A stretch of DNA of 64,000 bases from Candidatus Omnitrophota bacterium (GTDB taxonomy: Bacteria; Omnitrophota; Gorgyraeia; Duberdicusellales; 4484-171). Both the position numbers and the translations under genes were made by a program. Within the stretch, counting starts at the first letter, position 1. Each line of letters begins with the position of its first letter. Below are positions 1,658 through 63,930 of this stretch, one piece after another. The stretch covers positions 15,366 through 79,365 of the forward strand of contig PMCS01000008.1 in NCBI GenBank assembly GCA_003154195.1. The letters are read 5' to 3'. Under the pieces are notes generated by a model. It made no database searches. It was not told the origin of the DNA and saw only the letters and a program-made list of their open reading frames with translations.

Positions 1658-2113
1658 TTATCCTATCTTTAAAATCCAAATCCCAGCAACAATCAAAATC
1701 ACCCCCACAAATTTCACCGGCGTCCAGGCTTCGCCTAAAATGATAATGCCGATTAAAAAGGTCAGAAACGGATAACTGCCGGAGATGGGAACGATGCGGG
1801 AAATGTCGCCGGATTTTAACGCGTTATAAAAACAAATCTGGCCCAGGATACTGGCCATAAACCCGGCCAAAATAAGCAATACCATCGGTTTGGCGCCGAC
1901 GGATTTGATCTCCGAAGGCTTAACCATAAAAGGGAGCAACAGGACTAATCCCAGCAGAACCCCCAGGGAACGATAAAACAATCCGGCCAGGGCGCTGGCT
2001 TTAGCCAGGCCTAATTTTTCCAGCAACGGAACAAAACCCCAAATTAACGCGGCCAACCCCGCCCAGTAAAAAGATGTCATAAGTTTATAAAGTGTTGGGC
2101 CCGTTGAGTCCAT
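1658..2113 (-). CDS. EamA/DMT-family small membrane transporter
   Basis: 151 aa with four or five hydrophobic helices. The true start is probably the internal Met at about 2080, because the first codons overlap the intergenic palindrome. Confidence 0.5.
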   Translation of the reverse strand: MDSTGPTLYKLMTSFYWAGLAALIWGFVPLLEKLGLAKASALAGLFYRSLGVLLGLVLLLPFMVKPSEIKSVGAKPMVLLILAGFMASILGQICFYNALKSGDISRIVPISGSYPFLTFLIGIIILGEAWTPVKFVGVILIVAGIWILKIG

Positions 2114-2195
2114 TGAGCCGGTTGCATAGTTAACAATGAATCTTTTAACACATTTAACGGGCTAAACTGGCTCAACCGGCCAAGCAGGCTAAACT
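2098..2195. repeat. Intergenic word-palindrome (cccgtt / gagccggtt family)
   Basis: Left arm cccgttgagtccattgagccggttg. Right arm taacgggctaaactggctcaaccggccaagcaggctaaac. Confidence 0.7.
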
Positions 2196-2198
2196 AAT

Positions 2199-2921
2199 TT
2201 AAATAACTATCCCCTTAAATAACTCCTTCTCTATCGCGATAATCTCATTAATGCCCTTCTTGCCCAAAGCCAGCAAGTCGCTTAGATCTTTCTCGTTAAA
2301 CGATCCATGCTCGCCGGTTCCCTGCAGCTCGATAAATTCTCCGCTTGATTTCATCACGACATTCATATCCACTTCCGCGGCAGAATCCTCATCGTAATCC
2401 AGATCCAACATGTATTTACCTTTGATGATCCCCACGCTGATCGCCGCTAAATAATCGGTAATACATATTTCCGGGATTTTTTTTGATTTATAAAGTTTAT
2501 CCATGCAATCAACCAGAGCCACAAATCCTCCCACAATCGATGCCACGCGCGTGCCGCCGTCAGCCTGCATCACGTCGCAATCAATGACAATGGTGCGCTC
2601 GCCGATTTTATTCATCAACGTAACATTGCGCAAGGCTCTGCCCACCAAACGTTGTATCTCCATGGTGCGCCCCGATAATTTATCCCGCTCGCGCTGGATG
2701 CGGGTATTGGTAGAGCGCGGCAGCATCCCGTATTCGGCGGTCAACCACCCTTTGCCGGAATTACGTAAAAACGGCGGGACTTTTTCGTCCACCGACGCGG
2801 TGCAGATAATCTTGGTATTGCCGAATTCGATAAGGCACGACCCCTCGGCGTGCTTGATAAAATTTCTGGTGATGTTGACTTTCCTTAGCTGGTCGAACAA
2901 TCGGTTGTCATTACGTTTCAT
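2199..2921 (-). CDS. rph: Ribonuclease PH
   Basis: 240 aa. Conserved RNase PH segments [19 protein letters not shown] and AISVGII. Confidence 0.88.
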
Positions 2922-3119
2922 TATACTCTCCTTTTATTTAGCCACTGATTAACACTGATTTCCACGGATTATTTTTTCCCGCCAAAGCGTAAAGCGCGCA
3001 AAGGTAAAATACAAAAATATTTTAACCACCCGTTCGCCTGGCTCTGCCAGGCTCACTAGATTACACAGATTTTCACAGATAGATTAAAACCAGTAAAACC
3101 AGATTTTTAAAAATATGCC

Positions 3120-3250
3120 CTTCGTAAACTTCGTATTCACGATTAATATTTCTTGTATTTATCAGTGAAATCAGTGTAATCTCGTGGTTGCAAATATTTG
3201 TTTTTCTGTATTCTCCGTGCCCTCTATGTCCTGTGGTAAATATTTTATCT
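3120..3250. repeat. Intergenic repeat, copy 1 (cttcgt.aacttcgt ... gtgccctct.tg.cctgtggt.aaat.ttttatct)
   Basis: Shares about 130 bp of collinear similarity with 5895-6050. Confidence 0.6.
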
Positions 3251-3257
3251 TTGTTTC

Positions 3258-4556
3258 TTAGTTTTTATTCCACTCCTCTTTATAAAAATAATACGCCTTT
3301 TTAAGGCGACGCAGGAATGGCGAGTTTTTGCCATCACCCTGGGAACAAACGCCGAGCCATTCGTCATTAACCCAGGCATCATTCATCGGCCCTTGCCAAG
3401 CGCCGATTACGGTATCGTGCTCATCAAGTTTGCCGCAAAACCACCAGCCGTCGAGCCAGTTATAGACAAAACCGCCGACCGAACAACCGCCGGAAGCGGC
3501 GGAATTTTTGGCCATATCGCGCCAGGCGCCTTTGTGGTAAAACGCCTGAAAATCTTCGTCTTCTTTTTGCTTACGGCTATCCCAGGAATCTCCGCCGTAT
3601 TCGGTGATCACCACGGCCCGGTCGAACCCGAAAAATTTTGGCTTACGGAACAGTGCGCCAAAGCCATACGGCCCGGTGTAACTGTTAAATCCTAAAAAAT
3701 CTATTGCCGGAGTATATTTTTTATAATAGGGCAACATCGCCTCAAGAGCGTTGCTTACGCCAACCGGATGATTTTTATCAAGTTGATGGATCATCTCGGC
3801 TACCTTGTTCACAAAGCGCGCGAATTCTCCCGGGCGCTGGCGGGCATTGGTATTGTTGAAAGTAGAATTTTCTTTACTGCCTACGGCGTCGTTTTCGTTG
3901 CCCAGCAGCCACATCAGGATATACGGCTCGTCTTTAAATTCAACAACCATCTTCCGGACGTCTTCAAGCATGCTCTCCAAATGCTTGGAGTTGGTATAGT
4001 CGGTCCCCTCTTCCCAGCTCGCGCCGGAACCACGCGTATAGGCGCCTAAAAAATTACCCATCATCACCATAATCCCGTATTTTTTATATAAATCGCGCAA
4101 CAATTCTTTATTGATGTTATCGGGATGATAAATCCGCAAGGTATTGGCGCCCATCTCTTTCATCAATTGAAAATCGCCCACCGCCGGTTCATCTTTATCC
4201 TGGATATTGTTTCCATTCTTGTCTACCCATGATTCATAGGCAACATCATTAATGCCGTTGTGGTTATAATCGTAATTCATCCACATATTGGACGCGGTAA
4301 GCCGCTCGCCGACCTTAATCGGGTCGGTGCATAATCCTTTAATAAAATAAGGATTATTGTCGACTAAAATCTGCCAGCCGCCGTTATCATACTTGACCAA
4401 TCGCACCCGGCCTTTACCCCGCTGTTCGACGATTTTTAGCTTTTGCGCGGGATAAGCCGCGGGAATCAAACCAACACCAAATATCCAACAACAAAAAAAA
4501 CTAAGAATAATCTTCATTTTTATATTTTCCATACCCTTTTTCTTAATCTGTAACAA
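3258..4556 (-). CDS. Secreted clan GH-A (TIM-barrel) glycoside hydrolase, GH2/GH5-like
   Basis: Signal peptide MKIILSFFCCWIFGVGLIPAAYPA, so the real start is probably about 4517. Acid/base LLGNEND and nucleophile VITEYGGDSW motifs. Confidence 0.5.
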   Translation of the reverse strand: MLQIKKKGMENIKMKIILSFFCCWIFGVGLIPAAYPAQKLKIVEQRGKGRVRLVKYDNGGWQILVDNNPYFIKGLCTDPIKVGERLTASNMWMNYDYNHNGINDVAYESWVDKNGNNIQDKDEPAVGDFQLMKEMGANTLRIYHPDNINKELLRDLYKKYGIMVMMGNFLGAYTRGSGASWEEGTDYTNSKHLESMLEDVRKMVVEFKDEPYILMWLLGNENDAVGSKENSTFNNTNARQRPGEFARFVNKVAEMIHQLDKNHPVGVSNALEAMLPYYKKYTPAIDFLGFNSYTGPYGFGALFRKPKFFGFDRAVVITEYGGDSWDSRKQKEDEDFQAFYHKGAWRDMAKNSAASGGCSVGGFVYNWLDGWWFCGKLDEHDTVIGAWQGPMNDAWVNDEWLGVCSQGDGKNSPFLRRLKKAYYFYKEEWNKN

Positions 4557-4745
4557 TCTGAGAAAGTCAGCCGCCTAAGCGGCCATATAGATTACACCTT
4601 GGACTTCCCCGGTACCCCGGGAAACCCGTGGACAAATTTTTAGGTTTTTCTTTGCTGACTTTGCCAGCCTCGCCTAGCTCGCCTCGCGGCGAAGCCGAGG
4701 GCTCGTCTAGGCGGGCGCCTTTGCGGGAAAATATTTTTCCTTCCC
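4555..4745. repeat. Two-module intergenic repeat, copy B (X then Y)
   Basis: X spans 4555-4640 and Y spans 4655-4745. Both are near-identical to 1561-1645 and 1425-1560 respectively, with the module order swapped. Confidence 0.8.
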
Positions 4746-4755
4746 TCACCTTCCA

Positions 4756-5316: not shown

Positions 5317-5381
5317 AATATTTTTACCACAATTTTTTCCCGCAAAAACGCGAAGTGCGCAAAGCTCGTTAAAAACAAATT

Positions 5382-5771: not shown

Positions 5772-5894
5772 ACAGACACCCGAGATTTTTTAATTCTTCT
5801 ACCTTTGCGATCTTCGCGCCTTAGCGAGAAATTTTTTTATATTTTCATTCGCGCTATTCGCGTGATTCGTTGTTAAATTTATTTTTTGTATTTA

Positions 5895-6050
5895 TTTGAG
5901 AAATCTGGGGGCAGTATTTTGTTTCTCTTCGTGAACTTCGTGCCTTCGTGGTAAATCTTTTGGTTTTTCATCCTTCATCCATCTTCCCTCATCCTGCAGT
6001 ATCTCTCTATGAGCTCTGTGCCCTCTGTGGTGAAATTTTTATCTGCGTAA
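5895..6050. repeat. Intergenic repeat, copy 2 (paralog of 3120-3250)
   Basis: cttcgtgaacttcgtgccttcgtggtaaatctttt ... tctctatgagctctgtgccctctgtggtgaaatttttatctg aligns with 3120-3250. Confidence 0.6.
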
Positions 6051-6058
6051 TTTTGCGG

Positions 6059-6616: not shown

Positions 6617-6619
6617 TCG

Positions 6620-7507
6620 CTACTTTATCACTGCCGTTGCTCTCCGCAACGCATGGCAGCCTATATTCACTCCTACCGGCAAACCGGCAATATGTGTAGG
6701 TGCTTTCAAAATTTTTACCGCCAGCGCCGTGGTTTTGCCACCTAACCCCATCGGCCCAATCTCCAAACGGTTAATTTTTTCTAAAATTCTTTTCTCCATC
6801 GCAGCCAGATTGCCGTCGAAATTCGGCTTCGCCAAATCTTGCAGTAAAGCCTTTTTTGCCAATAGGAGCGCGCCGTCAGCAGTCGAGCCGATACCCACGC
6901 CCACAATAAACGGCGGGCAGCTTTCCGGCCCGGCGCGCCGGGCCGCGTCCACGATAAAATCTTCTATCGCTTCAATCGAAACGGTCGGATTAAACATCTT
7001 CAACGCCGATTTATTTTCACTGCCAAATCCTTTAGGTAAAATTGTGATTTTTAAACCTTTCACCCCGGGGATAAAATCAAGATGGATAACTGCGCCACCA
7101 TAAAAAGAAGCGCCGCGCTTAAGCGGGCCAACGGCGGAAGCGCGTAAATAGCTTTTCGCGTACCCCGACTCGATACCTTTCTTCACGGCTTCAATATCCC
7201 GGGCGCAAACCCGGATATCACTGCCCGCCTCTAAAAAAACTATCGGCAGCCCCGTATCCTGGCAAATCGCGAGATTTTCTTTTTTAGCAATCCGCGCGTT
7301 ATCTAAAATCCATCTCAGCGCCTGCTTAGCCCGCTTATTGGTTTCTACGCTATATGCTTTTTTAATCAACCGCGATACATCGGCGGGCAACTCAAAGGCA
7401 GCCCTTGCCACTATTTTTTCCACTTGTTTTTTTATCTTATCAATTTTCATCGTTGATATCACCGCCGAAATTTTTACATAGTAGAGCATGTAGAGCATAT
7501 AGAACAT
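6620..7507 (-). CDS. fumA: Class I fumarate/tartrate hydratase, alpha subunit
   Basis: Motif ICQDTGLPIVFLE...GIGSTADGA. The likely true start is MKIDKIKKQ at about 7450. Confidence 0.8.
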   Translation of the reverse strand: MFYMLYMLYYVKISAVISTMKIDKIKKQVEKIVARAAFELPADVSRLIKKAYSVETNKRAKQALRWILDNARIAKKENLAICQDTGLPIVFLEAGSDIRVCARDIEAVKKGIESGYAKSYLRASAVGPLKRGASFYGGAVIHLDFIPGVKGLKITILPKGFGSENKSALKMFNPTVSIEAIEDFIVDAARRAGPESCPPFIVGVGIGSTADGALLLAKKALLQDLAKPNFDGNLAAMEKRILEKINRLEIGPMGLGGKTTALAVKILKAPTHIAGLPVGVNIGCHALRRATAVIK

Positions 7508-7568
7508 GTAGAAAATATTTACTTGGCAATTCCCTACATTCTCTATATGGCCTGCATATGAATATTTT

Positions 7569-10839: not shown

Positions 10840-10945
10840 TAGCCGGTTTTGCCGGTTGGGCACATTAACCGGTTAAGTAGGTTTAGCCGGTTAAATGATT
10901 TTTTAACTGGCTAAACCGGCTCAACCAGCTAAACCGGTGAAACAT
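10840..10945. repeat. Intergenic word-palindrome (ccggtt/aaccgg words)
   Basis: ttagccggttttgccggttgggc...ggtttagccggttaa ... ttaactggctaaaccggctcaaccagctaaaccggtg. Confidence 0.7.
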
Positions 10946-10948
10946 AGA

Positions 10949-12843: not shown

Positions 12844-13070
12844 AATATTATTATACCATTTTGGATAAATCTTTCATTAGAAAAACAATGCACAACCGAA
12901 AAAATGCCTGCTCGCTTATCTCACTCGATCCGTCTCGCTCGCCTCTAGGCAAGCCGAGGACCTTCAGCTTGCCGAAGCGGACACGAATCGAAGCGGGCTC
13001 GCCTCGCTTTGCGGACGAAGCGGACAGTTAGGGAGGCGCGCGGCGTATTTTTCCGGTTAATCCGCTTCTT

Positions 13071-21323: not shown

Positions 21324-21345
21324 ACTCCCCCTTTTAAACTCGGTA

Positions 21346-21600
21346 AAGGTTACGGTTATGATACCTGTTTAAGCTAGGATTAAGGTTAAAGCTAAGGCTA
21401 AGGCTTTAGGAATATCCCTGTCATTTTAAATTGGACATTGAACATTTATCAATTATCATTGAAAAAATTCTTTATTTTCAGCTTCTTTCATTTTAAAATG
21501 ATAAATGTCCAATGCTAAATTTAAAATCATATCTATTCTTGCCGACGCCCTAACCGTTACCCTTACCCATACCGGCTTCATAGCCCTAGCCTTAACCAAG
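21346..21600. repeat. Composite element: outer imperfect inverted repeat (ggttaa/gctaagg words) enclosing a core AT-rich hairpin repeat (21421-21530)
   Basis: Outer arms are 21346-21410 and 21547-21600, and the arm segment ccggcttcatagccct also occurs at 63895-63915. The core cattttaaattggacattgaacattt...aaatgtccaatgctaaatttaaaat has three other copies. Confidence 0.7.
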
Positions 21601-21612
21601 TATCGAACCTGA

Positions 21613-24886: not shown

Positions 24887-24907
24887 GTTCAAACCTTGAA
24901 ACCCCAC

Positions 24908-25000
24908 TAGAGTGTCATAGTGTCAAAGTATACCCCTTGTAGCGCTCCGACACTCCATCTGGCTCTCTGACACTTTGACGCTCTGACGCTTTCGCGCTCA
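24908..25000. repeat. Intergenic word-palindrome (catagtgtc / gacgctttg family)
   Basis: agagtgtcatagtgtcaaag ... ctctgacactttgacgctctgacgcttt. Paralogs at 47800-47878 and 32540-32605. Confidence 0.7.
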
Positions 25001-26157: not shown

Positions 26158-26268
26158 CCCCGTAGGGGCGAGGCCTGCCTCGCCCTATACTAAATAATTT
26201 TTAACATTATTTTCATCGGATAAATTGTTATTTTTATTAGAGGGCCGGGCAGGCCCGGCCCCTACTAT
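26158..26268. repeat. Intergenic palindromic element (cgtagggg...cccctac family)
   Basis: Arms ccgtagggg[cgaggcctgcctcg]ccctata and tagaggg[ccgggcaggcccgg]cccctacta. Each arm carries its own GC mini-palindrome. Confidence 0.7.
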
Positions 26269-28051: not shown

Positions 28052-28183
28052 CGTAGGGGTCAGGCATGCCTGACCCGTTGATTTATATTTCAAAAATGTC
28101 AGATTTGAACAATCTGACGACAATCGATAAATTATTATTTTCCCGTATTTTATTAACGGGGCGGGCATGCCCGCCCCCTACAG
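28052..28183. repeat. Intergenic palindromic element (gtagggg...cccctac family)
   Basis: Arms gtagggg[tcaggcatgcctga]cccgtt and aacgggg[cgggcatgcccg]cccctac. The caggcATGcctg palindrome creates an ATG on both strands. Confidence 0.75.
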
Positions 28184-28184
28184 G

Positions 28185-31359: not shown

Positions 31360-31432
31360 TCCCGTTACCCTGAATGAAATATTTAGGTGCGGGACGCCCC
31401 GAACCTAAATAGATTATCTATGGTAACGGGGC
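31360..31432. repeat. Intergenic palindrome with cccgtta/taacggg termini
   Basis: gccccgttaccctgaatgaaatatttaggt ... acctaaatagattatctatggtaacggggc. Confidence 0.7.
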
Positions 31433-32513: not shown

Positions 32514-32610
32514 GTATTAACCTAAATAATCTCTAAGCGCCAAAGTATCAGAGTGCCAGGGCGGTTCTTTAACTTTGACGCTTTGCCCTTTTGACGCTAT
32601 GATCCTTCCG

Positions 32611-35219: not shown

Positions 35220-35430
35220 TTTTGTAATACAGATGATCGCGGATTAAAAATCAACAGATGATCACAGATAATTACCAAAAATTCCAAGCACCGAATAACA
35301 ATTAAATACCAACAACCAGAATTCTAATGACCTGGACAAAAACCGATTAAGTCATCCGGTAATTGAAATTTATAATTTAATTATCTTATCAGCGATCATC
35401 AGCTTCTTCTAATCTGCGATCATCTGCGTT
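35220..35430. repeat. Intergenic repeat built from gatcatc/cagatgatc words
   Basis: The segment atcttatcagcgatcatcagct...aatctgcgatcatctgcg matches 56903-56962. A shorter relative lies at 17990-18045. Confidence 0.65.
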
Positions 35431-36511: not shown

Positions 36512-36540
36512 AAATTTATTATATTTGAATGATTGCTATC

Positions 36541-36624
36541 GGTTACTAAAGGTTACAAAAGGTTGTAAAGCCCCCGGCAACCGTTAGTAACCAATAGCAA
36601 CCAGCAGTAACCTTTAGTAACCAT
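36541..36624. repeat. Intergenic word-palindrome (ggttac/gtaacc words)
   Basis: ggttactaaaggttacaaaaggttg ... cagtaacctttagtaaccatt. Confidence 0.7.
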
Positions 36625-37991: not shown

Positions 37992-38039
37992 AATTTTTAT
38001 TTCTTACTGCGTAAAAAATAAATAACGATAATTGCGTAG

Positions 38040-38112
38040 AAACGGGCACCCGTGCCTGTCCTTTATTATTTAATATTTCATCATTGAGTAAGGGGGGGGC
38101 CGCCCCTACTGC
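38040..38112. repeat. Intergenic palindromic element (acggg...cccctac family)
   Basis: aacgggcacccgtgcc ... ggggggggccgcccctac. Confidence 0.6.
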
Positions 38113-38120
38113 ATATTTGA

Positions 38121-44925: not shown

Positions 44926-44982
44926 GCAAACCTGTAATTATTTGAGTAGCCGGGGATTACCTGCTTTCAAATATTCTCCCTA

Positions 44983-45088
44983 TCATTTTAAATTGAACAT
45001 TGAACATTTGCCAATGATCATTGAAAGAATTAATTATTTTTCTCTTCTTCCATTTTAAAATGATAATTAATCAATGCTAAATTTAAAA
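44983..45088. repeat. Core AT-rich hairpin repeat, copy 2
   Basis: tcattttaaattgaacattgaacatttg...cattttaaaatgataattaatcaatgctaaatttaaaat. Confidence 0.75.
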
Positions 45089-45113
45089 TTAACCTGGCTA
45101 TCTGAGGGTTTAG

Positions 45114-46082
45114 CTATTTCTTCTTATACCCATTTTTGTAAATATAGGCGTGTTTTTTTACAAAAGAAATGACTTTATCTTCTATCGCCTTAAGATTGCC
45201 CTCGACGGTAGTACCGCTGGCCCGTCGATGCCCGCCGCCGCCGAAAAATTTGGCGATTTTGTTGACATCGACGTACTCGCGGGAACGGAAATTAACTCTT
45301 ACTTTATTGGCGCTGATTTGTTTAAAAATCATAAATACTTCAACACCCTTCAACAACCGCATGATGGAAAAAATAATCTCGGTGAGGTCAAAACCTTTGT
45401 CCTCCCATTTGTCGGCGGCAACCCAGCAAATTTTACGCGACATATCAAGTTTCAAGCTCGCCATAAGGCCGGTAATAAGTTTTAAATCATGGATCTCGCA
45501 GGCGCTATGGATATTCTCGAATACCCTGTTGGGTTTGATATTATGCTTCATTAAATCAGCGATAATTTTATGCACCCGGGAATCGGCGCTGCTGAAGGTA
45601 AAATTTCCCGTATCGGTAGCGATGCCGGTATAAAGGCATAACGCTATCTCGTCATCCATCACGCCGAATTGCCGGCAAAGCTCATAAAGCAACTGGCAAG
45701 CGGAACTGGCCTGCGGCGCAATCCAATTTATATCGCCGAAGTAAGTATTACTGATGTGATGGTCGATGTTGACAATGCAATCGGCGCAACCCAGGGAATC
45801 CTTGACCTTCCCCGTGCGGGAAGAATCGGAACAGTCTAAAACTATTACCGTGTCAAAACGCTCTTTCCTGAAGGTATTTTTTATCATCCGGCTGGAAGGA
45901 AGAAATTTATAGATATCGGGAACCGCGTCGTTAAGGTAAAGCACAGCTCTCTTTTTAAGCTTCTTAAGGAGAGCGTACATAGCCAATGCCGAGCCGAGAG
46001 CGTCGCCTTCGACATTCATATGCGTAGTAATAAGAAAACTCCGGCTTGATTTTATTTTATTTATTATCTTCTTTATTATCAT
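45114..46082 (-). CDS. DHH/DHHA1 phosphoesterase (NrnA-like oligoribonuclease/pAp phosphatase)
   Basis: HMNVEGDALGS, DHH and C-terminal GGGH (DHHA1). Start taken at MIIKKI. Confidence 0.75.
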   Translation of the reverse strand: MIIKKIINKIKSSRSFLITTHMNVEGDALGSALAMYALLKKLKKRAVLYLNDAVPDIYKFLPSSRMIKNTFRKERFDTVIVLDCSDSSRTGKVKDSLGCADCIVNIDHHISNTYFGDINWIAPQASSACQLLYELCRQFGVMDDEIALCLYTGIATDTGNFTFSSADSRVHKIIADLMKHNIKPNRVFENIHSACEIHDLKLITGLMASLKLDMSRKICWVAADKWEDKGFDLTEIIFSIMRLLKGVEVFMIFKQISANKVRVNFRSREYVDVNKIAKFFGGGGHRRASGTTVEGNLKAIEDKVISFVKKHAYIYKNGYKKK

Positions 46083-46446
46083 CTTCCTGCTTCCGCTCCT
46101 CCGCGCGGCGCGCGTCTTCGCTGCGCACCTCATCTATCTTTTTGCAAATATCCACGCTATATTTTATCGAATCGTCGGGTATAAACTTAAGCTGCGGGAC
46201 AATGCGTAAACTTATCTTCTTAGCCATACTTGCCCTTAAGAAACCATTCATTTTCCTCAGTATCTCGCTTACTTTTTTATAATTATTGTCATTAAGCAGG
46301 CTGAAAAAAACTTTGCTTTCCTGTAAATCGCCGGTTGTCTCCACCCGCGTTATCGATAAAAGTGTAGCCGCCGGGTCATCAACCTGCGACTGGATTACTT
46401 CCATAAGCGCTTTCTGTATCTGGCTGTTTATTTTTTCTATTCTCAT
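46057..46446 (-). CDS. rbfA: Ribosome-binding factor A
   Basis: RbfA KH-like fold sequence with an acidic/basic tail. Confidence 0.8.
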   Translation of the reverse strand: MRIEKINSQIQKALMEVIQSQVDDPAATLLSITRVETTGDLQESKVFFSLLNDNNYKKVSEILRKMNGFLRASMAKKISLRIVPQLKFIPDDSIKYSVDICKKIDEVRSEDARRAEERKQEDDNKEDNK

Positions 46447-46482
46447 ATTTTTCGCTGCGCAAAAAATAAATGTAATTATAGC

Positions 46483-47784
46483 TCAAACTGGCTGCTTTAG
46501 CAACAGTTTATGAAAAATATGTTTTGCTTCTTTTAATTCCTCGCCTTTTGTTGCGAGTTTCTTCTCGATCTTGGCATCCAGGAGGCCTTCCAGAACTTTA
46601 CCGTATAAAACCAAAGGCTGGAAACCAAGCGCTTTTAAATCGCTGCCCTTAACTTTAAGGCGGATGTGAATAAGTTTTCCCAAAAACAACTCGATTTGCC
46701 GTCGGATTGTTTTTCCCGAATAGTAAGCGTAAAAAAACAAAATCGTTTCCAGGCTGAGCGGGAATAATTTTCGATACAGGTCCCGCGGTTTAACGTTTTT
46801 GTCCAAACACGATATTCCCGCCAGGCTGTCTTTCGCCGACAATACCCTTATCCGGTCCCCTTTACGAAAATCGAATTCCTGGACAAATTTTGCGATTTCC
46901 TCCCGCTTCAAACCAATCATCAAACCGATAAGATAAATCAGCCAAGCGTCTACCTTCCTAAGCCCGCCGAATTTTTTGCCGTAAACGCCAATCGTTTTTT
47001 CAACGCGACACAGTAATCCGTAAATACGTTTATTGACTTTTAAACTTTTGTTGATAAAAAGAAAACCGGTAAGCGCGCCGATTCTTTTAACATTGCGGCA
47101 GGGTTTCGGCTCTTTTAAAATAAGGACTAACTCATCGCGTAAACGATGGGCGTGGACACAGCGCAACGCTTCCTGCGCCGCGGCCTCTTTGATTAAGCCG
47201 AGCGTTTTCTTTTCAATTTTGAAAGAAAACCTCTGTTCGAACCTTACGGCGCGCAAGATTCTTGTCGGGTCATCAGAAAAACTCCGGTTATGTAATACCC
47301 GGATCAATTTTTGTTTAAGGTCGCGCGAGCCGGAATAAAAATCGATCAACTTCGCGTAATCGTTTTTATTCAGGCTTATTGCCATGGCATTTATCGTAAA
47401 ATCGCGGCGAAACAGATCATCCCGCAAATCGGACGGTTCAACCGCAGGTAAAACTCCCGGCCGCGAATAATATTCTTTTCTCGCGGTAGCAAAATCTATT
47501 TTATGATTATCGAAAAAGACCGTCGCTGTCCCAAAAGCATGATGCCGCGTGAATTTAGCGCTATACCTTTGCGCCAGGGCTTGCGCCAAAGCAGCGGCAT
47601 CGCCCTCTACGACAATATCCAAGTCAAGATTCGTCCTGCCCAATAATAAATCACGCACAATCCCGCCGACCAAGTATACTCTTACCCCTTGGGGTTCGGC
47701 AAGGGACGATATGACATCCAGGATGTTCTTTAATTCTTTCGGCAATTTTTTGAGTTTGGTAATCATGTTTTTGTCAAAAATCAA
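46483..47784 (-). CDS. cca: CCA tRNA nucleotidyltransferase / poly(A) polymerase family
   Basis: Pol-beta NT motif YLVGGIVRDLLLGR...DLDIVV. Confidence 0.8.
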   Translation of the reverse strand: MIFDKNMITKLKKLPKELKNILDVISSLAEPQGVRVYLVGGIVRDLLLGRTNLDLDIVVEGDAAALAQALAQRYSAKFTRHHAFGTATVFFDNHKIDFATARKEYYSRPGVLPAVEPSDLRDDLFRRDFTINAMAISLNKNDYAKLIDFYSGSRDLKQKLIRVLHNRSFSDDPTRILRAVRFEQRFSFKIEKKTLGLIKEAAAQEALRCVHAHRLRDELVLILKEPKPCRNVKRIGALTGFLFINKSLKVNKRIYGLLCRVEKTIGVYGKKFGGLRKVDAWLIYLIGLMIGLKREEIAKFVQEFDFRKGDRIRVLSAKDSLAGISCLDKNVKPRDLYRKLFPLSLETILFFYAYYSGKTIRRQIELFLGKLIHIRLKVKGSDLKALGFQPLVLYGKVLEGLLDAKIEKKLATKGEELKEAKHIFHKLLLKQPV

Positions 47785-47799
47785 ATATCATTATAGAGT

Positions 47800-47878
47800 C
47801 ATAGTGTCATCACATCAAAGCGTCAAAGTTTAATCCCTCTAAAACACTCTGACACTATGACGCTCTGACGCTTTGCCT
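47800..47878. repeat. Intergenic word-palindrome (catagtgtc / gacgctctgacgcttt family)
   Basis: gagtcatagtgtcatcacatcaaagcgtcaaag ... ctctgacactatgacgctctgacgctttgcc. Confidence 0.7.
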
Positions 47879-48765
47879 CACTTTGCCCTCGGATGATACA
47901 ACGTATGTATCTGTTTTAATCTCGCCTGATTTATATGCGTATAGATTTGCGTTGTGGTAATACTGACGTGGCCCAGCATCTCCTGGACGCTGCGTAAATC
48001 AGCGCCATGTTCCAATAAATGCGTAGCGAAGGAATGCCGTAGAGTGTGCGGCGTAGCGTGTTTTTTTATCCCTGCCGCCCGCACGCACTTTTTTATCATT
48101 TTCCAGATACTTTGCCGGGTAATGCTCCTGGCTCCCTGGGCGAGAAAAAGAGTATCCATAGTTTTACCTTTAAGGAGTTTCGGCCTCGCTTCCGCGATGT
48201 ATCTGCTTAAAAAATGAGACGCGGTCTTGCCTAAAGGGACAATCCGTTCCTTAGAACCTTTTCCTTTGCATTTAACGAATCCGACATCCAGATTAAGGTC
48301 ATTAACCCTGAGCGACGCCGCTTCCGAGATGCGCAGGCCTGACGCGTACATTATTTCCAGAATCGCTTTATCGCGCAGCCCCTGGGCGCTGTTTAAGTTG
48401 ACTTGCTTAAGGAGGCGGTTGATTTCTTCAGAAGTCAAGAAAGAAGGAATCTTCTTATCCAGCTTCAGCGATTCCATTAAATCGGTAGGGTCGTTCGCCA
48501 CGGCCTTTTCCCTCAGTAAAAACCGATGAAAACTTTTTACCGTAGACATAACACGAGAAATACTGACCACCGCCATTTTGCCGCGTAAAAGAAATAAAAA
48601 ATCGCCTACATCTTTACGGCTGATTTGAGAAAGGCTGTCGATATTCTTCGACTTAAGATATTTGAAATATTTTCCCAAATCCTGGGCATAGGCGTCGAGA
48701 GAGTTTTTCGCCAACCCTTTCTCTACCGTTAGATAATCGATAAATGCCTGCAGGTAAATATCCAT
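47878..48765 (-). CDS. Tyrosine site-specific recombinase XerC/XerD
   Basis: Catalytic R...HxxR...Y region HATPHTLRHSFATHLLEHGADLRSVQEMLGHVSITTTQIYTH. Confidence 0.85.
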   Translation of the reverse strand: MDIYLQAFIDYLTVEKGLAKNSLDAYAQDLGKYFKYLKSKNIDSLSQISRKDVGDFLFLLRGKMAVVSISRVMSTVKSFHRFLLREKAVANDPTDLMESLKLDKKIPSFLTSEEINRLLKQVNLNSAQGLRDKAILEIMYASGLRISEAASLRVNDLNLDVGFVKCKGKGSKERIVPLGKTASHFLSRYIAEARPKLLKGKTMDTLFLAQGARSITRQSIWKMIKKCVRAAGIKKHATPHTLRHSFATHLLEHGADLRSVQEMLGHVSITTTQIYTHINQARLKQIHTLYHPRAK

Positions 48766-48770
48766 AAATT

Positions 48771-48900
48771 AAGGGTATCGGGATATTGGGACATCGGGAT
48801 CTGGGTATTGGGGGACTGGGATATCGGGCATTTCCTAATTCCCCAATTTCCCAATCTCCCAATCTCCAAATCCTAATCCCCTGATATCCTAAATATCCTG
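48771..48900. repeat. Intergenic word-palindrome (gggatattggg / cccaatctccc words)
   Basis: gggtatcgggatattgggacatcgggatctgggtattggggg ... ccccaatttcccaatctcccaatctccaaatcc. Confidence 0.7.
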
Positions 48901-49522: not shown

Positions 49523-49957
49523 TTACCGATTTTTTCCGGTGATTCTTTCTGTTGCCATAATATTATTTTTTGCCGCCTGGATAAGACGCTGGGCGCCGTC
49601 TTTGGAGAATTTGCGTTTGTAGTCAGCTAGCTCGCGTAAATTCATCCCCTGCATAAAATTATCATAATATTCTCCGGGTAATTCCTTACTTTCGCCATAC
49701 AAAGCTAAAATCGCCCGGCCTAAATAAATGTGGCTTTTCTCGCGAAACTTTTTGGCATAAAGAAGCGCGCGCGCCGCGTGAAACATAGCATAGTAAGCTT
49801 GCACCGTCGCCCACTTGTATCTTTCCTCGTCAAATGAATGCTGGGCATCGGCTAAATCTTCCCTGGCGGTTTCCAATTCTTTCGCCACAAGCCTGGGGCC
49901 GTCGGAAAAAGAAACGATTCTCCCCTTTTCGATAGCTTCCCTGAGATTATTCTTCAT
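49523..49957 (-). CDS. HEPN-domain protein (toxin partner of MNT)
   Basis: 144 aa helical protein. C-terminal LRELADYKRK fits the HEPN R-x4-6-[HY] motif. Overlaps the upstream MNT gene by 11 bp. Confidence 0.65.
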   Translation of the reverse strand: MKNNLREAIEKGRIVSFSDGPRLVAKELETAREDLADAQHSFDEERYKWATVQAYYAMFHAARALLYAKKFREKSHIYLGRAILALYGESKELPGEYYDNFMQGMNLRELADYKRKFSKDGAQRLIQAAKNNIMATERITGKNR

Positions 49958-50540
49958 GTTCCGGTTTTCCCTCCCATAAAGTTATCCCTTTTTTTATTTG
50001 TTCAAAAAAATGCTTATCGTCTTTGCGCGAACTAACCATTTCCAAAGGATCATAAATGACGGCGTTGATATAATTATCCGCGTGGTTAAATTTAGCGATA
50101 ATTTTCTCGACAGCTTCTTTCTCGTCGGTTTTTACAAACAAATCAATGTCGCTGCGGCTGGTGTTTTCTCCGCGGGCGCAACTGCCGAATAACGTTATTT
50201 GATAAGAATAGGGTTTAAGTTTTTTTAAAAGCGGCTGCAAGGAAAGAAAATTTTCGAACATCTTGAAGTGTTTCAAAAGCGGGCTGTCTTCGTTGACTTT
50301 ATATAGAAATAGATTTCCCCGGGGCGTCCGGTTAACAACCTCCAGTTCCAGGAGAAGCCGCAACGCCTGATTGGTCGCGCCTTTGCTTGTAGAAACCGCC
50401 TTAGATATCTCCGATGCCGAAAAATTATCGGCGGAATTCAAAGCGAAAAAAGATAAAATCTTTAACGGCACGGGGTTATACAGAATATCCTTTAAGTTAT
50501 GGGTTTTGCTATCGTTCATTGCATTATCCTCATCGTCCAT
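49947..50540 (-). CDS. wHTH plus minimal nucleotidyltransferase (MNT) antitoxin-type protein
   Basis: NT motif LFGSCARGENTSRSDIDLFV, i.e. GS-x9-13-D-x-D. Confidence 0.7.
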   Translation of the reverse strand: MDDEDNAMNDSKTHNLKDILYNPVPLKILSFFALNSADNFSASEISKAVSTSKGATNQALRLLLELEVVNRTPRGNLFLYKVNEDSPLLKHFKMFENFLSLQPLLKKLKPYSYQITLFGSCARGENTSRSDIDLFVKTDEKEAVEKIIAKFNHADNYINAVIYDPLEMVSSRKDDKHFFEQIKKGITLWEGKPEHEE

Positions 50541-50720
50541 TATAATGAACGATAGACTTGTGTCAACTATTATATCAGAAAGGTAAGCTTGGGCAGAGGT
50601 TTAACTTGGTGGAATAGTAAGAGAAATAATCAAATAATTATTTATTCTATAACGATAATCAGCCGCCTAAGCCGCCTGCGGCCAAATTGTGCCGCGGTTC
50701 AGGTCGGCTGGATTTTATGT

Positions 50721-52400: not shown

Positions 52401-52555
52401 ACAATAGGATTATAACAGAAAGGCGCATTTTGTCATTTTAACAAAATGCGCCTTTTTTGTTTAAGAATCTATTTTTATTATCTTTACGCACCAAACGCAT
52501 TTCCCCGATGCGTTTGGTAATTAAATTATTTTTGCCGGAGTATTACCGGCAAAAA

Positions 52556-53584
52556 TCATTTACCGATTAATTTTTCGGCAATCTGCACCGCATTGGTTGC
52601 CGCGCCTTTACGCAGATTGTCCGCTACCACCCAAAGCCAGAGGCCGTTTTTGACAAAAGGATCCTTGCGAATTCTGCCCACAAACGTTTCATCCCTTCCT
52701 TCGATATCCTTAGGCATAGGGTAGAGAGCGTTCCTGGGGTCATCGATCACGACAATCCCCTTTGATTTAGCAAGTAAAGTTTTCACTTTTTGCGGCTCGA
52801 TCACGTCTCGGGTTTCGATATAAACCGATTCCGAATGGCCGGTCCTGACCGGAACGCGGACGGTAGTCGCGGAAATCTTTATTTTATTATCGTGCATAAT
52901 CTTATGCGATTCATTGATGACTTTCCACTCCTCGGAAGTATAATCAAAATCGCTGAAAGACCCGATATGGGGAAAAACGTTATAGCCCAATTGCTGGGGC
53001 ATAGATTTTTCCACGCCGTTCACCTGCAAGTTTTTACAGACACCCGCCAGAATAGCCTCGTTTTCCTTGTTAAGCTGCTCGATCGCGCTGCGGCCGGCGC
53101 CGCTCGACGCCTGCAACGTCGTAACGATAACTCTTTTAAGGCCGGCTTTTTTATAAATCGGCCATAAAGCAACGACGAGCTGTATCGTCGAACAGTTGGG
53201 ATTGGCAATAATCCCCTGGTGCTTCTTGATATCATTGCTATTTACCTCCGGCACAACCAGCGGCACATCGTCCCGCATCCGGAAATCAGCGCCGTTATCG
53301 ATAACCACCCCGCCGCGCTTAACCACCTCGGAAGCAAAAGTCACTGCCGCGCCCTTATCGCCTTCAGTCCCGGCGAATAAAGCGATGTCCACGCCGTCGA
53401 AGCTCTCCGGAATAGTCTCTTTAACTTGATAGACTATCCCATCAACATTGATCTCGCGGCTACGGCGGGCTAAAACTTTTAATTCGGCTATGGGAAATTT
53501 ACGGCGGCGCAATACCCGCAGCATCTCTTCGCCGACCGCGCCGACGCCCACTACCGCTACGTTATATTTATCTTTTTTTCGCAT
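52556..53584 (-). CDS. asd: Aspartate-semialdehyde dehydrogenase
   Basis: VAVVGVGAVG and active-site NPNCST. Confidence 0.9.
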   Translation of the reverse strand: MRKKDKYNVAVVGVGAVGEEMLRVLRRRKFPIAELKVLARRSREINVDGIVYQVKETIPESFDGVDIALFAGTEGDKGAAVTFASEVVKRGGVVIDNGADFRMRDDVPLVVPEVNSNDIKKHQGIIANPNCSTIQLVVALWPIYKKAGLKRVIVTTLQASSGAGRSAIEQLNKENEAILAGVCKNLQVNGVEKSMPQQLGYNVFPHIGSFSDFDYTSEEWKVINESHKIMHDNKIKISATTVRVPVRTGHSESVYIETRDVIEPQKVKTLLAKSKGIVVIDDPRNALYPMPKDIEGRDETFVGRIRKDPFVKNGLWLWVVADNLRKGAATNAVQIAEKLIGK

Positions 53585-53606: not shown

Positions 53607-53688
53607 GTACGGGATGGGCTTGCCCCATCCCGTATAATAAATATTTACGCAACAAGCATAACGGGCGGGGACTAACCCCGCCCCTACA
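53607..53688. repeat. Intergenic palindromic element (gtacggg...cccctac family)
   Basis: gtacggg[atgggcttgccccat]cccgtataa ... taacggg[cggggactaaccccg]cccctacaa. Confidence 0.7.
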
Positions 53689-54780: not shown

Positions 54781-54888
54781 CGTTAAGCCTGCTATGCCAG
54801 TTTAGCCTGTTGAGCCCGTTTGGCCTGTTAGCACTGTTGATAATTTTAACGCTACAACGGGCACAACGGGCTAAACAGGCTCAACGTT
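54781..54888. repeat. Intergenic word-palindrome (cccgtt / gggctaaac words)
   Basis: gccagtttagcctgttgagcccgtttggcctg ... aacgggcacaacgggctaaacaggctcaacg. Confidence 0.7.
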
Positions 54889-55380: not shown

Positions 55381-55499
55381 TTAGTTGAGCCGGTTGGGCC
55401 GGTTGGGCCGGTTAGAAAGTTGAAACACTACAACCGACTTAACCGGCTCAACTATCTCAACTGGCTAAACCGACTCAACCGGCTTAACCGGCTCAACGG
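55381..55499. repeat. Intergenic word-palindrome (gagccggtt / aaccggctc words)
   Basis: ttagttgagccggttgggccggttgggccggtta ... ttaaccggctcaactatctcaactggctaaaccgactcaaccggcttaaccggctcaacgg. Confidence 0.75.
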
Positions 55500-56764: not shown

Positions 56765-56962
56765 AATTATGTTTACACCGCAGATGATCGCTGATTAGAA
56801 GATGCGGATAATCACGGATGATTATTAAAAATTCAAAATCCAATAAGCTAAACAGTTCTGGTCATTGGAAAATAGAATTTGGGATTTGGGATTTGGTGTC
56901 GAGAATTTAACCATCTTATCAGCGATCATCAGCTGATTTTTAATCTGAGATCATCTGTGTTT
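56765..56962. repeat. Intergenic repeat built from gatcatc words (paralog of 35380-35440)
   Basis: gcagatgatcgctgattagaagatgcggataatc ... atcttatcagcgatcatcagctgatttttaatctgagatcatctgtg. Confidence 0.65.
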
Positions 56963-58499: not shown

Positions 58500-58566
58500 T
58501 TTACCATTGCAAATTGAACATTTACCATTTTAAAATGATACTTGTCCAATGTTAAATTTAAAATTA
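58500..58566. repeat. Core AT-rich hairpin repeat, copy 3 (truncated)
   Basis: attgcaaattgaacatttaccattttaaaatgatacttgtccaatgttaaatttaaaat. Confidence 0.65.
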
Positions 58567-58576
58567 TTATTAACCG

Positions 58577-59311: not shown

Positions 59312-59321
59312 AATTTCTCCT

Positions 59322-59405
59322 TATTTTAAATTGAACATTGAGCATTTGTCATTTTAAATTTGTGAAAAACGATAAATGCTCAATGCCAAATGATAAATTT
59401 AAAAT
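59322..59405. repeat. Core AT-rich hairpin repeat, copy 4
   Basis: ttattttaaattgaacattgagcatttgtcattttaaatt...gataaatgctcaatgccaaatgataaatttaaaatg. Confidence 0.7.
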
Positions 59406-59423
59406 GAATCAATCTTTAGTTTA

Positions 59424-60320: not shown

Positions 60321-60351
60321 AATTTATTTTTTGCCGTACAAAAAATAAATT
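60321..60351 (-). terminator. AT-stem hairpin aatttattttttg ccgtac aaaaaataaatt
   Basis: Perfect AT-rich palindrome between fabH and fabD. Similar hairpins (ttttttgctgcgcaaaaaa) occur at 63250-63285 and 46444-46474. Confidence 0.4.
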
Positions 60352-60500
60352 CTACCCGCTTCGCCCCGATGCGCCTGAATATCGCGAAAATATCTTCTCA
60401 GACATTTTCGCAAAGCTTTCGGGACTTCACTTACCCCGTTAGAAATTACATTTCTAACGGGGCTTACGCTTCGCGGATAAAAAAGTATTTTTTAATTGGG

Positions 60501-62469: not shown

Positions 62470-62498
62470 AGCGATCTCCACGATATAGTTTCATGTCA

Positions 62499-62705
62499 TT
62501 AGCTTGCTTTCTTTTTATCTTTTTTATCGAATTCGACCTTGACTACTTCACGGGAAGCATAATACCCGCAAAAAGGACAAATCATATGCGCCGGCTTAAG
62601 CTTACGGCATTGCTTGCATTCAACCAAAAGGGGAACGGCTATTTTATAATGAGTTAACCTTTTAGCCGAACGCGCGTGAGAATGTCTGCGTTTTGGATGC
62701 GCCAT
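62499..62705 (-). CDS. rpmF: 50S ribosomal protein L32
   Basis: MAHPKRRHSHARSAKR...CPFCG. Confidence 0.85.
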   Translation of the reverse strand: MAHPKRRHSHARSAKRLTHYKIAVPLLVECKQCRKLKPAHMICPFCGYYASREVVKVEFDKKDKKKAS

Positions 62706-62747
62706 ATTATCTCCTTTTGTTTTTTGCTTCGCGAAAAAACAAATCAA

Positions 62748-63248
62748 TTATTGTTTTGTTTTTTTCTTACCCTTGCGCCGCGGCAATACCCCCGCCACGG
62801 AAATCGTAAATTTTTGCCGTTTGACGGCGCTGTCATTTTTTTCAATACAGGCGCACTCTTGATTATTCAAATCTACGCCGCATTCAGGACAGATGCCCTT
62901 GCAATCGGGCTTACATAAAACTTTCATGGGAAAATCAAGAAGCAATTCTTCCCGGACATCTTTATCGACCTCAAGGTATTCGCCTAAACCGACGGCATCG
63001 TAAGATAACTCGAAATTTTTATTTATTTTTTGCTCTACTTCTTTTAAGCACCGGGAACAAGTAATAAGCCGGTTCAATGTTACACGAATATCGACGAGAA
63101 TTTCTTTATCGATTTTACAAAAATCGCCTACAAGACGGATGTTTTTTAAAAATTTGATATCGAAACTATCGATGTCCCAGTTTCCTGCCGGGATATCTTC
63201 GCATATGCGCAATGGTTCTCTTTTTATCTTATCTACTTCTATTTTCAT
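62748..63248 (-). CDS. yceD: DUF177/YceD-family protein
   Basis: Conserved position before rpmF-plsX-fab. C-terminal CxxC...CxxC (CKPDCKGICPECG). Confidence 0.7.
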   Translation of the reverse strand: MKIEVDKIKREPLRICEDIPAGNWDIDSFDIKFLKNIRLVGDFCKIDKEILVDIRVTLNRLITCSRCLKEVEQKINKNFELSYDAVGLGEYLEVDKDVREELLLDFPMKVLCKPDCKGICPECGVDLNNQECACIEKNDSAVKRQKFTISVAGVLPRRKGKKKTKQ

Positions 63249-63310
63249 ATTATTTTTTGCTGCGCAAAAAATAATTTATATATTTTTTGTTTTCGAAAAG
63301 CCGGGAAACG

Positions 63311-63790
63311 TTATTTGCGCATTCTTTTGGCTAACGCCTTCTGAACCGCTACCGGTAAAAATTGTTTTAGCTCCGCGCCCAGGCTGCCGGCTTCTTTAAT
63401 CAACCGCGAAGAAATATAGGAATATTGCGGATGGGGCATCAAAAAGATAGTCTCAACCCCGGGATCAAGGCTCCTGTTGGTAAGAGCCATTTGGAATTCA
63501 TACTCAAAATCGGAAAGCATTCTTAAACCCCGTATGATAACTTTAGCGTTATTTTTACGGGCAAAATCAACGACCAGGCCGTCAAAGCTAACAACTTTTA
63601 TGCCTTTCACATCCTTAAGCGCGTTTTTTGCCAACGCAAAACGTTCCGGAAAAGCGAAAAGAGGGTTTTTAAAAGAATTCTTAGCCACAGCCACGATTAC
63701 TTCATCAAATATAGACGCAGCGCGCTTAATGATATCAATGTGGCCGTTGGTAATCGGGTCAAATGTCCCCGGACAAAGTGCTTTAGGCAT
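63311..63790 (-). CDS. coaD: Phosphopantetheine adenylyltransferase
   Basis: CPGTFDPITNGHIDII. Confidence 0.9.
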   Translation of the reverse strand: MPKALCPGTFDPITNGHIDIIKRAASIFDEVIVAVAKNSFKNPLFAFPERFALAKNALKDVKGIKVVSFDGLVVDFARKNNAKVIIRGLRMLSDFEYEFQMALTNRSLDPGVETIFLMPHPQYSYISSRLIKEAGSLGAELKQFLPVAVQKALAKRMRK

Positions 63791-63799
63791 AGTTTTAAA

Positions 63800-63930
63800 A
63801 AACGGTTAGGGTAATGGTAAGGAAGCCTGTTTGGGTTATGGTAAAGGTTATGGCTGAAAATTCGTATCAGCCCTGGCCATTGCCTTAACCCAAACCGGCT
63901 TCATAGCCCTAACCCTGACCTTAACTCTAT
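63800..63930. repeat. Intergenic word-palindrome (ggttagg/ggttatgg words); paralog of the outer arms of the 21346-21600 element
   Basis: ggttagggtaatggtaaggaagcctgtttgggttatggtaaaggttatggctg ... cagccctggccattgccttaacccaaaccggcttcatagccctaaccctgacc. Confidence 0.7.

Follow-up and report, generated by a model that had tools for sequence, protein, structure and literature searches.

Many gene junctions in a 64,000-nucleotide stretch of DNA from an uncultured Candidatus Omnitrophota bacterium (assembly GCA_003154195.1, contig PMCS01000008.1, positions 15,366 to 79,365; hereafter the window) are occupied by hairpin-forming repeats, even inside the division and cell wall (dcw), leu and fab operons. 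[quoted passage not shown] Most distinctive is a class of foldback type, in which an arm of tandem degenerate words of 6-12 nt is followed by a short or variable centre and then by an arm of complementary words. The elements belong to dispersed families, are lineage-specific gains, vary in word number, can be nested, lie close to stop codons and lack the features of terminators.

How much of the intergenic DNA is structured? Forty-one spacers of at least 60 nt separate genes in the window (median gap 101 nt). We compared the minimum free energy (MFE) of the sense strand with dinucleotide shuffles and found z<-3 for 22 of the 41 spacers, versus 2 of 41 length-matched coding segments; 25 spacers have z<-2, and about 16 show no significant structure. 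Watson-Crick inverted repeats scoring 44 or more occur at 2.66 per 10 kb, whereas the dcw loci of 80 other genomes (1.25 Mb) have 0.76 per 10 kb; for long ones (at least 60 nt) with periodic arms the densities are 0.94 versus 0.23 per 10 kb. Some 15-17 spacers contain an inverted repeat 60 nt or more in length (60-290 nt), and about 12 of them have clearly word-built arms, with periods of 6, 7, 8, 9 and 10 nt by Tandem Repeats Finder and arm autocorrelation. The remaining structured spacers contain ordinary hairpins of 20-40 nt, including REP-like units headed by GTAG. An initial annotation of the window had described long palindromes built from short words at nearly every junction, with at least 24 spacers made of two reverse-complementary halves. 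Such palindromes are real and far exceed shuffles and controls, and the words that it quoted are present (GAGCCGGTT/AACCGGCTC, CCCAATATCCC and GACGCT.TGACGC), but their extent was overstated, both in the number of long palindromes and in that of arms with a clear array of period 6-10; folding beyond shuffled controls, its proposed check, likewise holds for just over half of the spacers. Some junctions that it named contain other things: short GC hairpins with a GTAG head at murB/ddl (28068-28184) and murF/murE (37992-38120), a degenerate copy at murG/ftsW, and at fabG/fabD an AT-rich element that has terminal inverted repeats and no word array.

The word palindromes are fitted closely between genes. 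Their arrays start at the upstream stop codon or within about 20 nt of it, and the palindromes end 0-38 nt upstream of the next start. In leuC and leuD the first word spans the last sense codon and the stop itself (CGT TGA GCC), and stop trinucleotides are modestly enriched in word palindromes (z 2.8). Left and right arms contain different numbers of words. Two families, F1 and F2, are defined by the 9-mer GTTNAGCCN and the 8-mer GYGTCANA, respectively. The F1 word is strongly conserved at G1, T3, A5, C7 and C8, intermediate at T2 and G6, and highly variable at positions 4 and 9. Because these two positions are also the least often paired (0.54-0.64 versus 0.69-0.86 for the others, in 13 F1 elements taken from the window and from further genomes), F1 stems are interrupted every 4-5 bp.

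Are these palindromes unique sequences, or do they form families? Direct-repeat analysis links distant junctions, in agreement with the initial annotation, and collinear copies are found for F1, F3, TAAGGC and CAGATGATCGC, contrary to what unique spacers would give. We also read 10 kb past each end of the window on the same 280-kb contig (84 kb in total), and the extra 20 kb adds three copies of the TAAGGC family, two of the CAGATGATCGC family and more GTAG units. TAAGGC copies are collinear and 75-85% identical, and differ at their outer ends by whole words. Four or five of them have the core GAAGCCGGTTTGGG...GCTGATACGAATT..CAGCC in collinear order, and in 4/4 copies the loop GCTGATACGAATT..CAGCC points the same way. 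F3 is AT-rich and 65-115 nt long, and has sigma-70-like (promoter-like) hexamers and terminal inverted repeats of about 25 nt (ATTTTAAATTKARCATTGRACATTT) that are common to its copies, of which there are four. One copy reveals nesting. The palindrome at 21324-21612 aligns collinearly with 63791-63940 through non-repetitive segments, and its outer arms are 80% identical to 63870-63920, a TAAGGC element; an F3 element sits in its loop, whereas the paralogous loop at 63804-63920 is intact. F3 is therefore a discrete insertion, and palindrome loops accept insertions. As expected of MITEs, F3, TAAGGC, CAGATGATCGC and F1 are all short and non-coding, with terminal inverted repeats and dispersed copies that share a consensus.

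Does this expansion belong to one lineage? The proteins closest to the MraY of the window come from Candidatus Omnitrophota metagenome-assembled genomes and are 66-70% identical; no relative was found between 70% and 100% identity. In these nearest relatives the same gene boundaries are short, plain junctions, with median gaps of 6-29 nt versus 101 nt in the window, and the three nearest Omnitrophota loci (L001, L002 and L005) contain no inverted repeat scoring 44 or more. Since the nearest relatives have compact junctions, the elements are lineage-specific gains. An assembly artefact as the origin of the spacers is ruled out, because independent assemblies carry identical sequence: the exact MraY protein is encoded on at least 10 contigs (ENA, JGI and NCBI assemblies of metagenomes from peat and permafrost thaw, WOOD18 samples and GCA_003154645.1 among them) that are 99.9-100% identical to the window, spacers included, their few differences being scaffold gaps or scattered single-nucleotide polymorphisms. 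L005, with a MraY 68% identical, has word-like arrays (GTAAGTATTAAGTATTAAGT; ACCATAGAC) in the spacer 2991-3358 upstream of mraZ, from which the word-array phenomenon may be sporadic elsewhere in Omnitrophota.

Is the architecture confined to this phylum? We scanned metagenome contigs with a one-arm F1 pattern; the counts rest on at least 119 loci listed. Paired inverted F1 arrays occur in about 12 of the 119 (L122, L115, L160, L145, L187, L208, L120, L116, L111, L141, L121 and L118; contig G+C 0.45-0.60), and several of these contigs also hold palindromes of other words (ATTGGTTTT, GCGCAAA, GTCAGAG and CGATTGC). Taken together, the unrelated contigs with palindromes of the window's words span a G+C of 0.45-0.62. 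No other locus of the source genome is among the matches listed. Twelve foreign palindromes were checked against open reading frames (ORFs; 8 F1, 4 of other words), and all fill a same-strand or convergent junction and abut a stop codon; none of the 12 lies at a divergent junction. LpxK, encoded next to the L122 element, has its best named relatives in Desulfobacterales (41-47% identity), so the palindrome class is not confined to Omnitrophota. This one copy recurs at the same lptG/lpxK junction in related Desulfobacterales-like lineages (Table 1). In L210 its centre is a repeat in its own right, and the second copy of that repeat (L210:8055-8350) lies between CGGAGTG-word arms, the same nesting pattern as at 21324-21612; L211 has further word palindromes at lptF/lptG and at one other junction. 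In scans of viral contigs we obtained 17 stretches with the F2 pattern (about 5 palindromic), versus 7 (1 palindromic, in L310) and 3 (0 palindromic) with two scrambled words. Judged from these small numbers, the F1 and F2 words may be favoured over scrambled ones.

Most of the listed F1 matches are unrelated and often collagen-like coding arrays. In L209, L154, L131 and L105 the F1 word, in a single orientation (GGCTCAACC repeats), makes up long coding arrays that would specify Gly-Ser-Thr collagen-like protein, a source of false positives for word-based searches. In L111 (GC 0.58), solo F1-type arrays at 3765-3810 and 7365-7410 are reverse complements of each other, 3.6 kb apart, and each lies past a stop codon. 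We rejected this pair as the ends of a 'full-length' element, as between them lie genes for PEP-CTERM proteins and for a sigma-54 response regulator, and no transposase.

How might such elements spread and persist inside essential operons? They would have moved as non-autonomous DNA with the help of an enzyme from another part of the genome, perhaps a transposase of the HUH/RAYT type that recognises hairpins (RAYT, REP-associated tyrosine transposase). Their arms could then lengthen and shorten by replication slippage, while template switching within the palindrome would keep both arms matched. A self-complementary insert may be nearly neutral, which would account for its persistence: in the co-transcribed RNA the stem, devoid of a U-tract terminator, would bring the upstream stop near the downstream start, and this juxtaposition would make the insert tolerable within an operon. 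If the elements also influence how stable transcripts are or how they are processed, as REP and Correia elements do, this would be a secondary effect.

Several observations weigh against spread by transposition followed by neutral persistence. The 84 kb of contig encode no transposase of any kind, including the RAYT/IS200-like enzyme that the initial annotation envisaged as the mobiliser; the only recombinase is a XerC/D-like protein. No consistent direct repeat that could represent a target-site duplication was found at the alignment boundaries, and the ends of the elements are fuzzy because the outer words vary. The TAAGGC stems show 2 compensatory versus 9 broken pairs, a count from three full copies, too few to point clearly either way. 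The F1 arms at lptG/lpxK are 90-97% identical between L122 and L211 though the adjacent LpxK proteins are only 65% identical, which points to host-level constraint, concerted evolution or re-insertion and is unlike selfish inserts that decay neutrally. Finally, L310 contains a palindrome of an arbitrary control word; the architecture thus exists with arbitrary words, compatible with generation in situ without transposition. Arm conservation at lptG/lpxK and the lack of target-site duplications and transposase are the main counter-evidence to the mobile-repeat interpretation, and keep two alternatives alive.

Could the elements instead be RNA structures selected by the host, acting as barriers to 3'-5' exonucleases, as RNase III/E sites or in translational coupling, and so setting the expression of individual cistrons? 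This is a possible explanation, though not the one we favour. REPs in operons of Escherichia coli and hairpins of short tandemly repeated repetitive (STRR) sequences in cyanobacterial nif operons have been described as RNA-level elements of this sort. The tight stop-to-start placement would fit, as would the position of the elements within co-oriented essential operons without terminators, the absence of divergent junctions among the 12 foreign examples and the arm conservation at lptG/lpxK. A Shine-Dalgarno sequence is also rare downstream of palindromes (1/15 versus 15/49 elsewhere), a trend short of significance (p=0.09). In the genome as a whole, few genes seem to use a Shine-Dalgarno sequence, GGAG, GAGG or AGGA being found within 20 nt upstream of the called start in 16 of 64 genes. 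Against selection at the RNA level, the closest relatives run the same operons without elements, equivalent positions are taken by many different families and sizes, orthologous lptG/lpxK copies have decayed or been lost (L210, L319 and the contig of P0125), and the TAAGGC covariation count, from three full copies, gives no clear signal. No strand-specific signal accompanies the elements either. Folding is better on the sense strand in 18 of 27 spacers, by a mean of -5.1 kcal, but in coding controls the bias is just as strong or stronger (-6.9 kcal; Mann-Whitney p 0.29), and neither excess stability nor G:U pairing of the sense strand goes beyond these controls; we therefore rejected strand asymmetry as a sign of RNA-level selection and attribute it to strand composition, the sense strand being G-rich. 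The roles in RNA processing or attenuation that the initial annotation suggested find no support in these data. Rfam 15 at gathering thresholds gave no match among the elements, and at E<=0.5 just two, both spurious resemblances to miRNA-precursor hairpins; a tRNA scan and a plasmid BLAST returned nothing relevant.

An origin in place, without transposition, is an unlikely account. A hairpin just past a stop codon would grow by slipped-strand duplication of words that are template-switched to the other arm, and families would reflect convergent words or gene conversion. Arms that differ by whole words and in word number, the many word types with periods of 6-12 nt, the lack of sharp ends or target-site duplications, the control-word palindrome of L310 and the first word that can include the last sense codon and stop are all consistent with it. 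The families have, however, collinear non-repetitive cores and loops and, for F3, common terminal inverted repeats, which independent slippage would not recreate. The excess of F1 and F2 words over scrambled controls in other phyla also speaks against it, within the small numbers given above.

We consider it rather improbable that the words are iterated DNA sites for a nucleoid, partition or topology protein. Bacterial interspersed mosaic elements (BIMEs) do bind integration host factor and gyrase, the conservation pattern of the F1 word resembles a binding-site logo, the same word is found across phyla, and the palindromes are strand-symmetric. Yet this one genome has eight or more word types that are unrelated and differ in period (6-12 nt), which argues against a single sequence-specific protein; helical phasing is absent, and simple binding would not need arrays in inverted pairs. 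Intrinsic terminators or attenuators punctuating the operons are highly improbable in spite of the stable hairpins directly 3' of stop codons, as no T-tract follows the word palindromes (tails are A-rich or mixed), sites combining a stem with a T-tract occur at chance level (31 versus 27.3+-4.5; 32 versus 27.3+-4.8), the stems are far longer than those of terminators, and likely operon ends carry a separate class of hairpin. The latter has the form T6-(G/C)CG..CG(C/G)-A6 (140-173, 52522-52562, 62734-62764 and 63249-63275; L320:10457-10490, L320:19850-19887 and L321:3333-3360) and looks like the genome's real, bidirectional intrinsic terminators, distinct from the word palindromes.

We also entertain, tentatively, a wider possibility: word-built foldback palindromes might form a cosmopolitan, uncatalogued bacterial class that lodges at stop codons and at times supplies them, grows by slippage and offers landing pads, whose words (F1 and F2) are common to Omnitrophota and Desulfobacterota, and which at some junctions is maintained beyond neutral expectation. 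If so, there should be either a dedicated hairpin-specific enzyme that mobilises or homogenises them, or a selected role within operons, such as translational coupling or transcript stability.

Table 1. Repeat elements at gene junctions of the window, and the lptG/lpxK junction in other contigs. Positions are those of the window; z values are those of the MFE fold test, except the one marked inverted repeat.
Element	Position or contig	Strand	Junction and description	z
F1	55384..55497	.	leuC/leuD; 114-nt palindrome, 7 words in left arm, about 3.5 in right	MFE -8.9
F1-like, GCCYGTT words	54796..54885	.	leuD/leuB; 90-nt palindrome	MFE -4.5
F1	10865..10948	.	Asp/Glu racemase gene to downstream ORF	MFE -8.2
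Degenerate F1	2103..2198	.	RNase PH/EamA; word arrays kept, weak fold	-0.9
F2	24909..24997	.	immediately 3' of TGA of ftsA-like gene	MFE -5.3
F2	47795..47877	.	xerC/D-like to CCA/polyA-polymerase-like gene	MFE -4.8
Degenerate F2	32514..32610	.	ftsW/murG; recognisable words, palindrome not significant	MFE -1.2; inverted repeat 0.6
GGTTACT 10-mer words (GGTTACTAAN)	36530..36623	.	murF/mraY; begins just past TAA	MFE -6.2
8-mer words GGGANATT / AATNTCCC	48781..48889	.	abuts upstream TAG	MFE -4.1
TAAGGC family, 6-mers	63804..63920	.	word palindrome, conserved loop GCTGATACGAATTTTCAGC	
Composite	21324..21612	.	TAAGGC outer arms with F3 (21415-21527) in loop	MFE -7.2
CAGATGATCGC family	35230..35426	.	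mraY/murD; 197 nt, two 11-12-nt words per arm, variable centre	-9.1
CAGATGATCGC family, second window copy	56780..56933	.	fabF/leuC; ATTTGGG array within	-3.1
CACTGATTA-word palindrome, 9-10-nt words CACTGATTAA / ATCAGTGAA	3054..3186	.	133 nt within 336-nt spacer 2922-3257	-4.5
Palindrome without word periodicity	31361..31430	.	murG/peptidase; 70 nt	MFE -5.5
F3	44977..45089	.	about 113 nt, terminal inverted repeats of about 25 nt	
F3	21415-21527		inside loop of 21324-21612 palindrome	
F3	59319..59408	.	fabD/fabG	MFE -5.5
F3, short copy without centre	58502..58567	.	fabG/acpP	
Inverted doublet of GTAG-headed GC hairpins (REPIN-like)	26162..26265	.	ftsQ/ftsA-like	MFE -4.6
Single GTAG-headed GC hairpin (GTAGGGGGCGGGCATGCCCGCCCC)	28158..28181	-	murB/ddl	
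Degenerate GTAG-headed GC hairpin	38088..38109	-	murE/murF	
GTAG hairpin (53663-53687) and second GC hairpin (53608-53634)	53608..53687	-	asd/leuB	MFE -5.5
lptG/lpxK	L122		reference; F1 arms 5-6 nt past TAA, 9 nt before ATG; centre 50 nt	
lptG/lpxK	L210		LpxK 89% identical to L122; decayed arms; repeat as centre, about 380 nt	
lptG/lpxK	L211		LpxK 65% identical to L122; arms intact, 34-37/38 identical to L122 arms; centre about 300 nt	
lptG/lpxK	L319		LpxK 63% identical to L122; arms decayed	
lptG/lpxK	contig of P0125		LpxK 61% identical to L122; without element, 37-nt gap	
lptG/lpxK	contig of P0129		LpxK 48% identical to L122; without element, genes overlap	

The window has a G+C content of 43-44% and a steadily negative GC skew on the plus strand, and every one of its long ORFs lies on the minus strand. 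Co-orientation is extreme throughout the 84 kb (window 1-64000 with L320 and L321), where all called genes but one are on one strand. NCBIfam and Pfam bear out the gene names that had been given to the dcw, leu and fab regions. The dcw cluster comprises mraZ, rsmH, an ftsL-sized ORF, ftsI, murE, murF, mraY, murD, ftsW, murG, a Peptidase_MA_2 gene, murC, murB, ddl and an FtsQ-like gene; leuC, leuD and leuB are followed by asd and truA; and the fab region consists of coaD, yceD, rpmF, plsX, fabH, fabD, fabG, acpP and fabF. The Peptidase_MA_2 gene between murG and murC (30434-31339) overlaps murC by 25 nt. At the end of the cluster (22952-26143), where ftsA and ftsZ would be expected, there is a weak FtsA-like ORF (381 aa; SHS2_FTSA E=0.0025) and then a 651-aa ORF without a Pfam match; no gene with a tubulin/FtsZ domain was found in the cluster. 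Two adjacent genes at 45114-47784, DHH/DHHA1 (NrnA-like) and PolyA_pol, each correspond to one half of the NCBIfam model (880 positions) for an A-adding tRNA nucleotidyltransferase, which suggests a split or fused gene relationship. There are two pairs resembling toxin-antitoxin systems: VapBC, with a PIN gene at 732-1130 and a VapB gene in 1131-1657, and a HEPN/nucleotidyltransferase pair at 49523-50540, which adjoins the XerC/D-like recombinase gene (47878-48765).

Word arrays also occur outside the palindromes. A tandem 9-mer array (ACATGTAGA x4) at 7476-7518 overlaps the 5' end of the longest fumarase-alpha ORF and gives rise to several in-frame ATGs; the public gene call begins downstream of the array. 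On the sense strand, the spacers 2922-3257 and 5772-6058 contain direct runs of CACNGAG or CACGAAG-type words (e.g. ACCACGAAGGCACGAAGTTCACGAAGAG), along with GATGAAG heptamers, in direct runs without a clear inverted partner. The L319 element has similar words (CACGAAT) in its centre. At 1401-1645 and 4554-4740 lies a composite repeat, GC-rich and about 190 nt long, with no Rfam match (copies 79-92% identical); 12844-13070 and 50541-50720 are partly similar to it, and it contains several stable hairpins, e.g. GGCCGCCTAAGCGGC and CCCGGNGTACCGGGG.

Why do these elements matter? REP, MITE and Correia hairpin repeats shape mRNA stability, supply promoters and rearrange genomes, and to our knowledge nearly all work on small hairpin repeats concerns cultured members of the Proteobacteria, Firmicutes and cyanobacteria. 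In a limited check of the literature we found no description of elements of this kind in Omnitrophota. Most of the elements have an unusual architecture, their arms being made of tandem words, and this architecture and even the same words recur in unrelated environmental bacteria. If general, such elements would offer a way to study how palindromes originate and grow, why operons tolerate them and whether they are moved by an unrecognised enzyme. In practical terms, they inflate intergenic DNA, confuse the calling of start codons and can break assemblies.

How do the elements compare with known systems? Like prokaryotic MITEs (Correia/NEMIS of Neisseria, Chunjie), they are non-coding, about 65-290 nt long, with inverted-repeat ends and a transcript that would form a hairpin, and they exist as many dispersed copies with a consensus, size variants and partial copies, both intergenic and intra-operonic. 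[quoted passage not shown] In contrast to MITEs, neither a target-site duplication nor a cognate insertion sequence was found in the 84 kb, and most families have arms that consist entirely of tandem 6-12-nt words, not of a unique terminal inverted repeat; we found no word-built arms described in the 2024 review of MITEs, where 'tandem repeat', 'subterminal' and 'hairpin' do not occur as terms (PMC10969869).

REPs, their REPIN doublets and BIMEs are, like our elements, extragenic palindromes mostly located just 3' of coding regions, often within operons, with several families per genome, clusters and inverted doublets (PMC3116915, PMC3733652). REPs are defined by a conserved unpaired GTAG or CGTC tetranucleotide at one end, and GTAG-tagged REPs are reported also from the PVC superphylum (PMC3733652). 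GTAG units further have a GC stem of 5-13 bp, a short loop and an extragenic position, and form head-to-head dimers. Five GC hairpins of the window (26162, 26255, 28171, 38099 and 53677) agree with this definition: all are intergenic and headed by GTAG, with the stem GGGCSRGG, a loop of 3-5 nt and, in one case, an inverted doublet. The initial annotation had favoured REP/MITE-like elements over simple terminators, and the dispersed families, the absence of terminator features and these GTAG units support that view, but the word-built palindromes are not REPs. At 70-290 nt they are 3-10 times longer than the REP unit, an imperfect palindrome of 20-40 bp; their 6-12-nt units are not palindromic; and they have no GTAG or CGTC head, their arms opening with GTTNAGCC, GCGTCAGA, GGTTACT and other family-specific words. 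Nor, unlike REP/RAYT systems, is a RAYT encoded in the 84 kb.

Heterocystous cyanobacteria contain the STRR heptamers CCCCAGT, TTGGTCA and CAACAGT, and STRR arrays reportedly form hairpins in nif intergenic regions. Our words are comparable to these and to the TAACTGA repeats of Beggiatoaceae in being tandem intergenic words of about 7 nt, in several families, common to distant phyla (PMC4679880). The TAACTGA sets, just upstream of start codons, are nearly all direct (169 direct, 1 indirect; PMC4679880). The arrays described here are, by contrast, inverted pairs that make one long hairpin; they also differ from STRRs in the words themselves, in their periods of 6-12 nt and in their omnitrophotal host, and so are not STRRs.

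Eukaryotic foldback (FB) transposons are kilobase-sized and have long inverted arms made of tandem short subrepeats. As in our elements, the number of subrepeats varies between arms and copies, and the variable centre may carry unrelated inserts. This likeness is one of architecture, and relatedness to the eukaryotic, kilobase-sized FB elements is unsupported. A further parallel is offered by the mitochondrial 'palindromic microsatellite' repeats of Volvox and Fusarium: organellar and apparently without sequence relation to our words, they likewise (PMC2670323, PMC7218506) fill intergenic DNA with hairpin repeats and inflate a compact genome.

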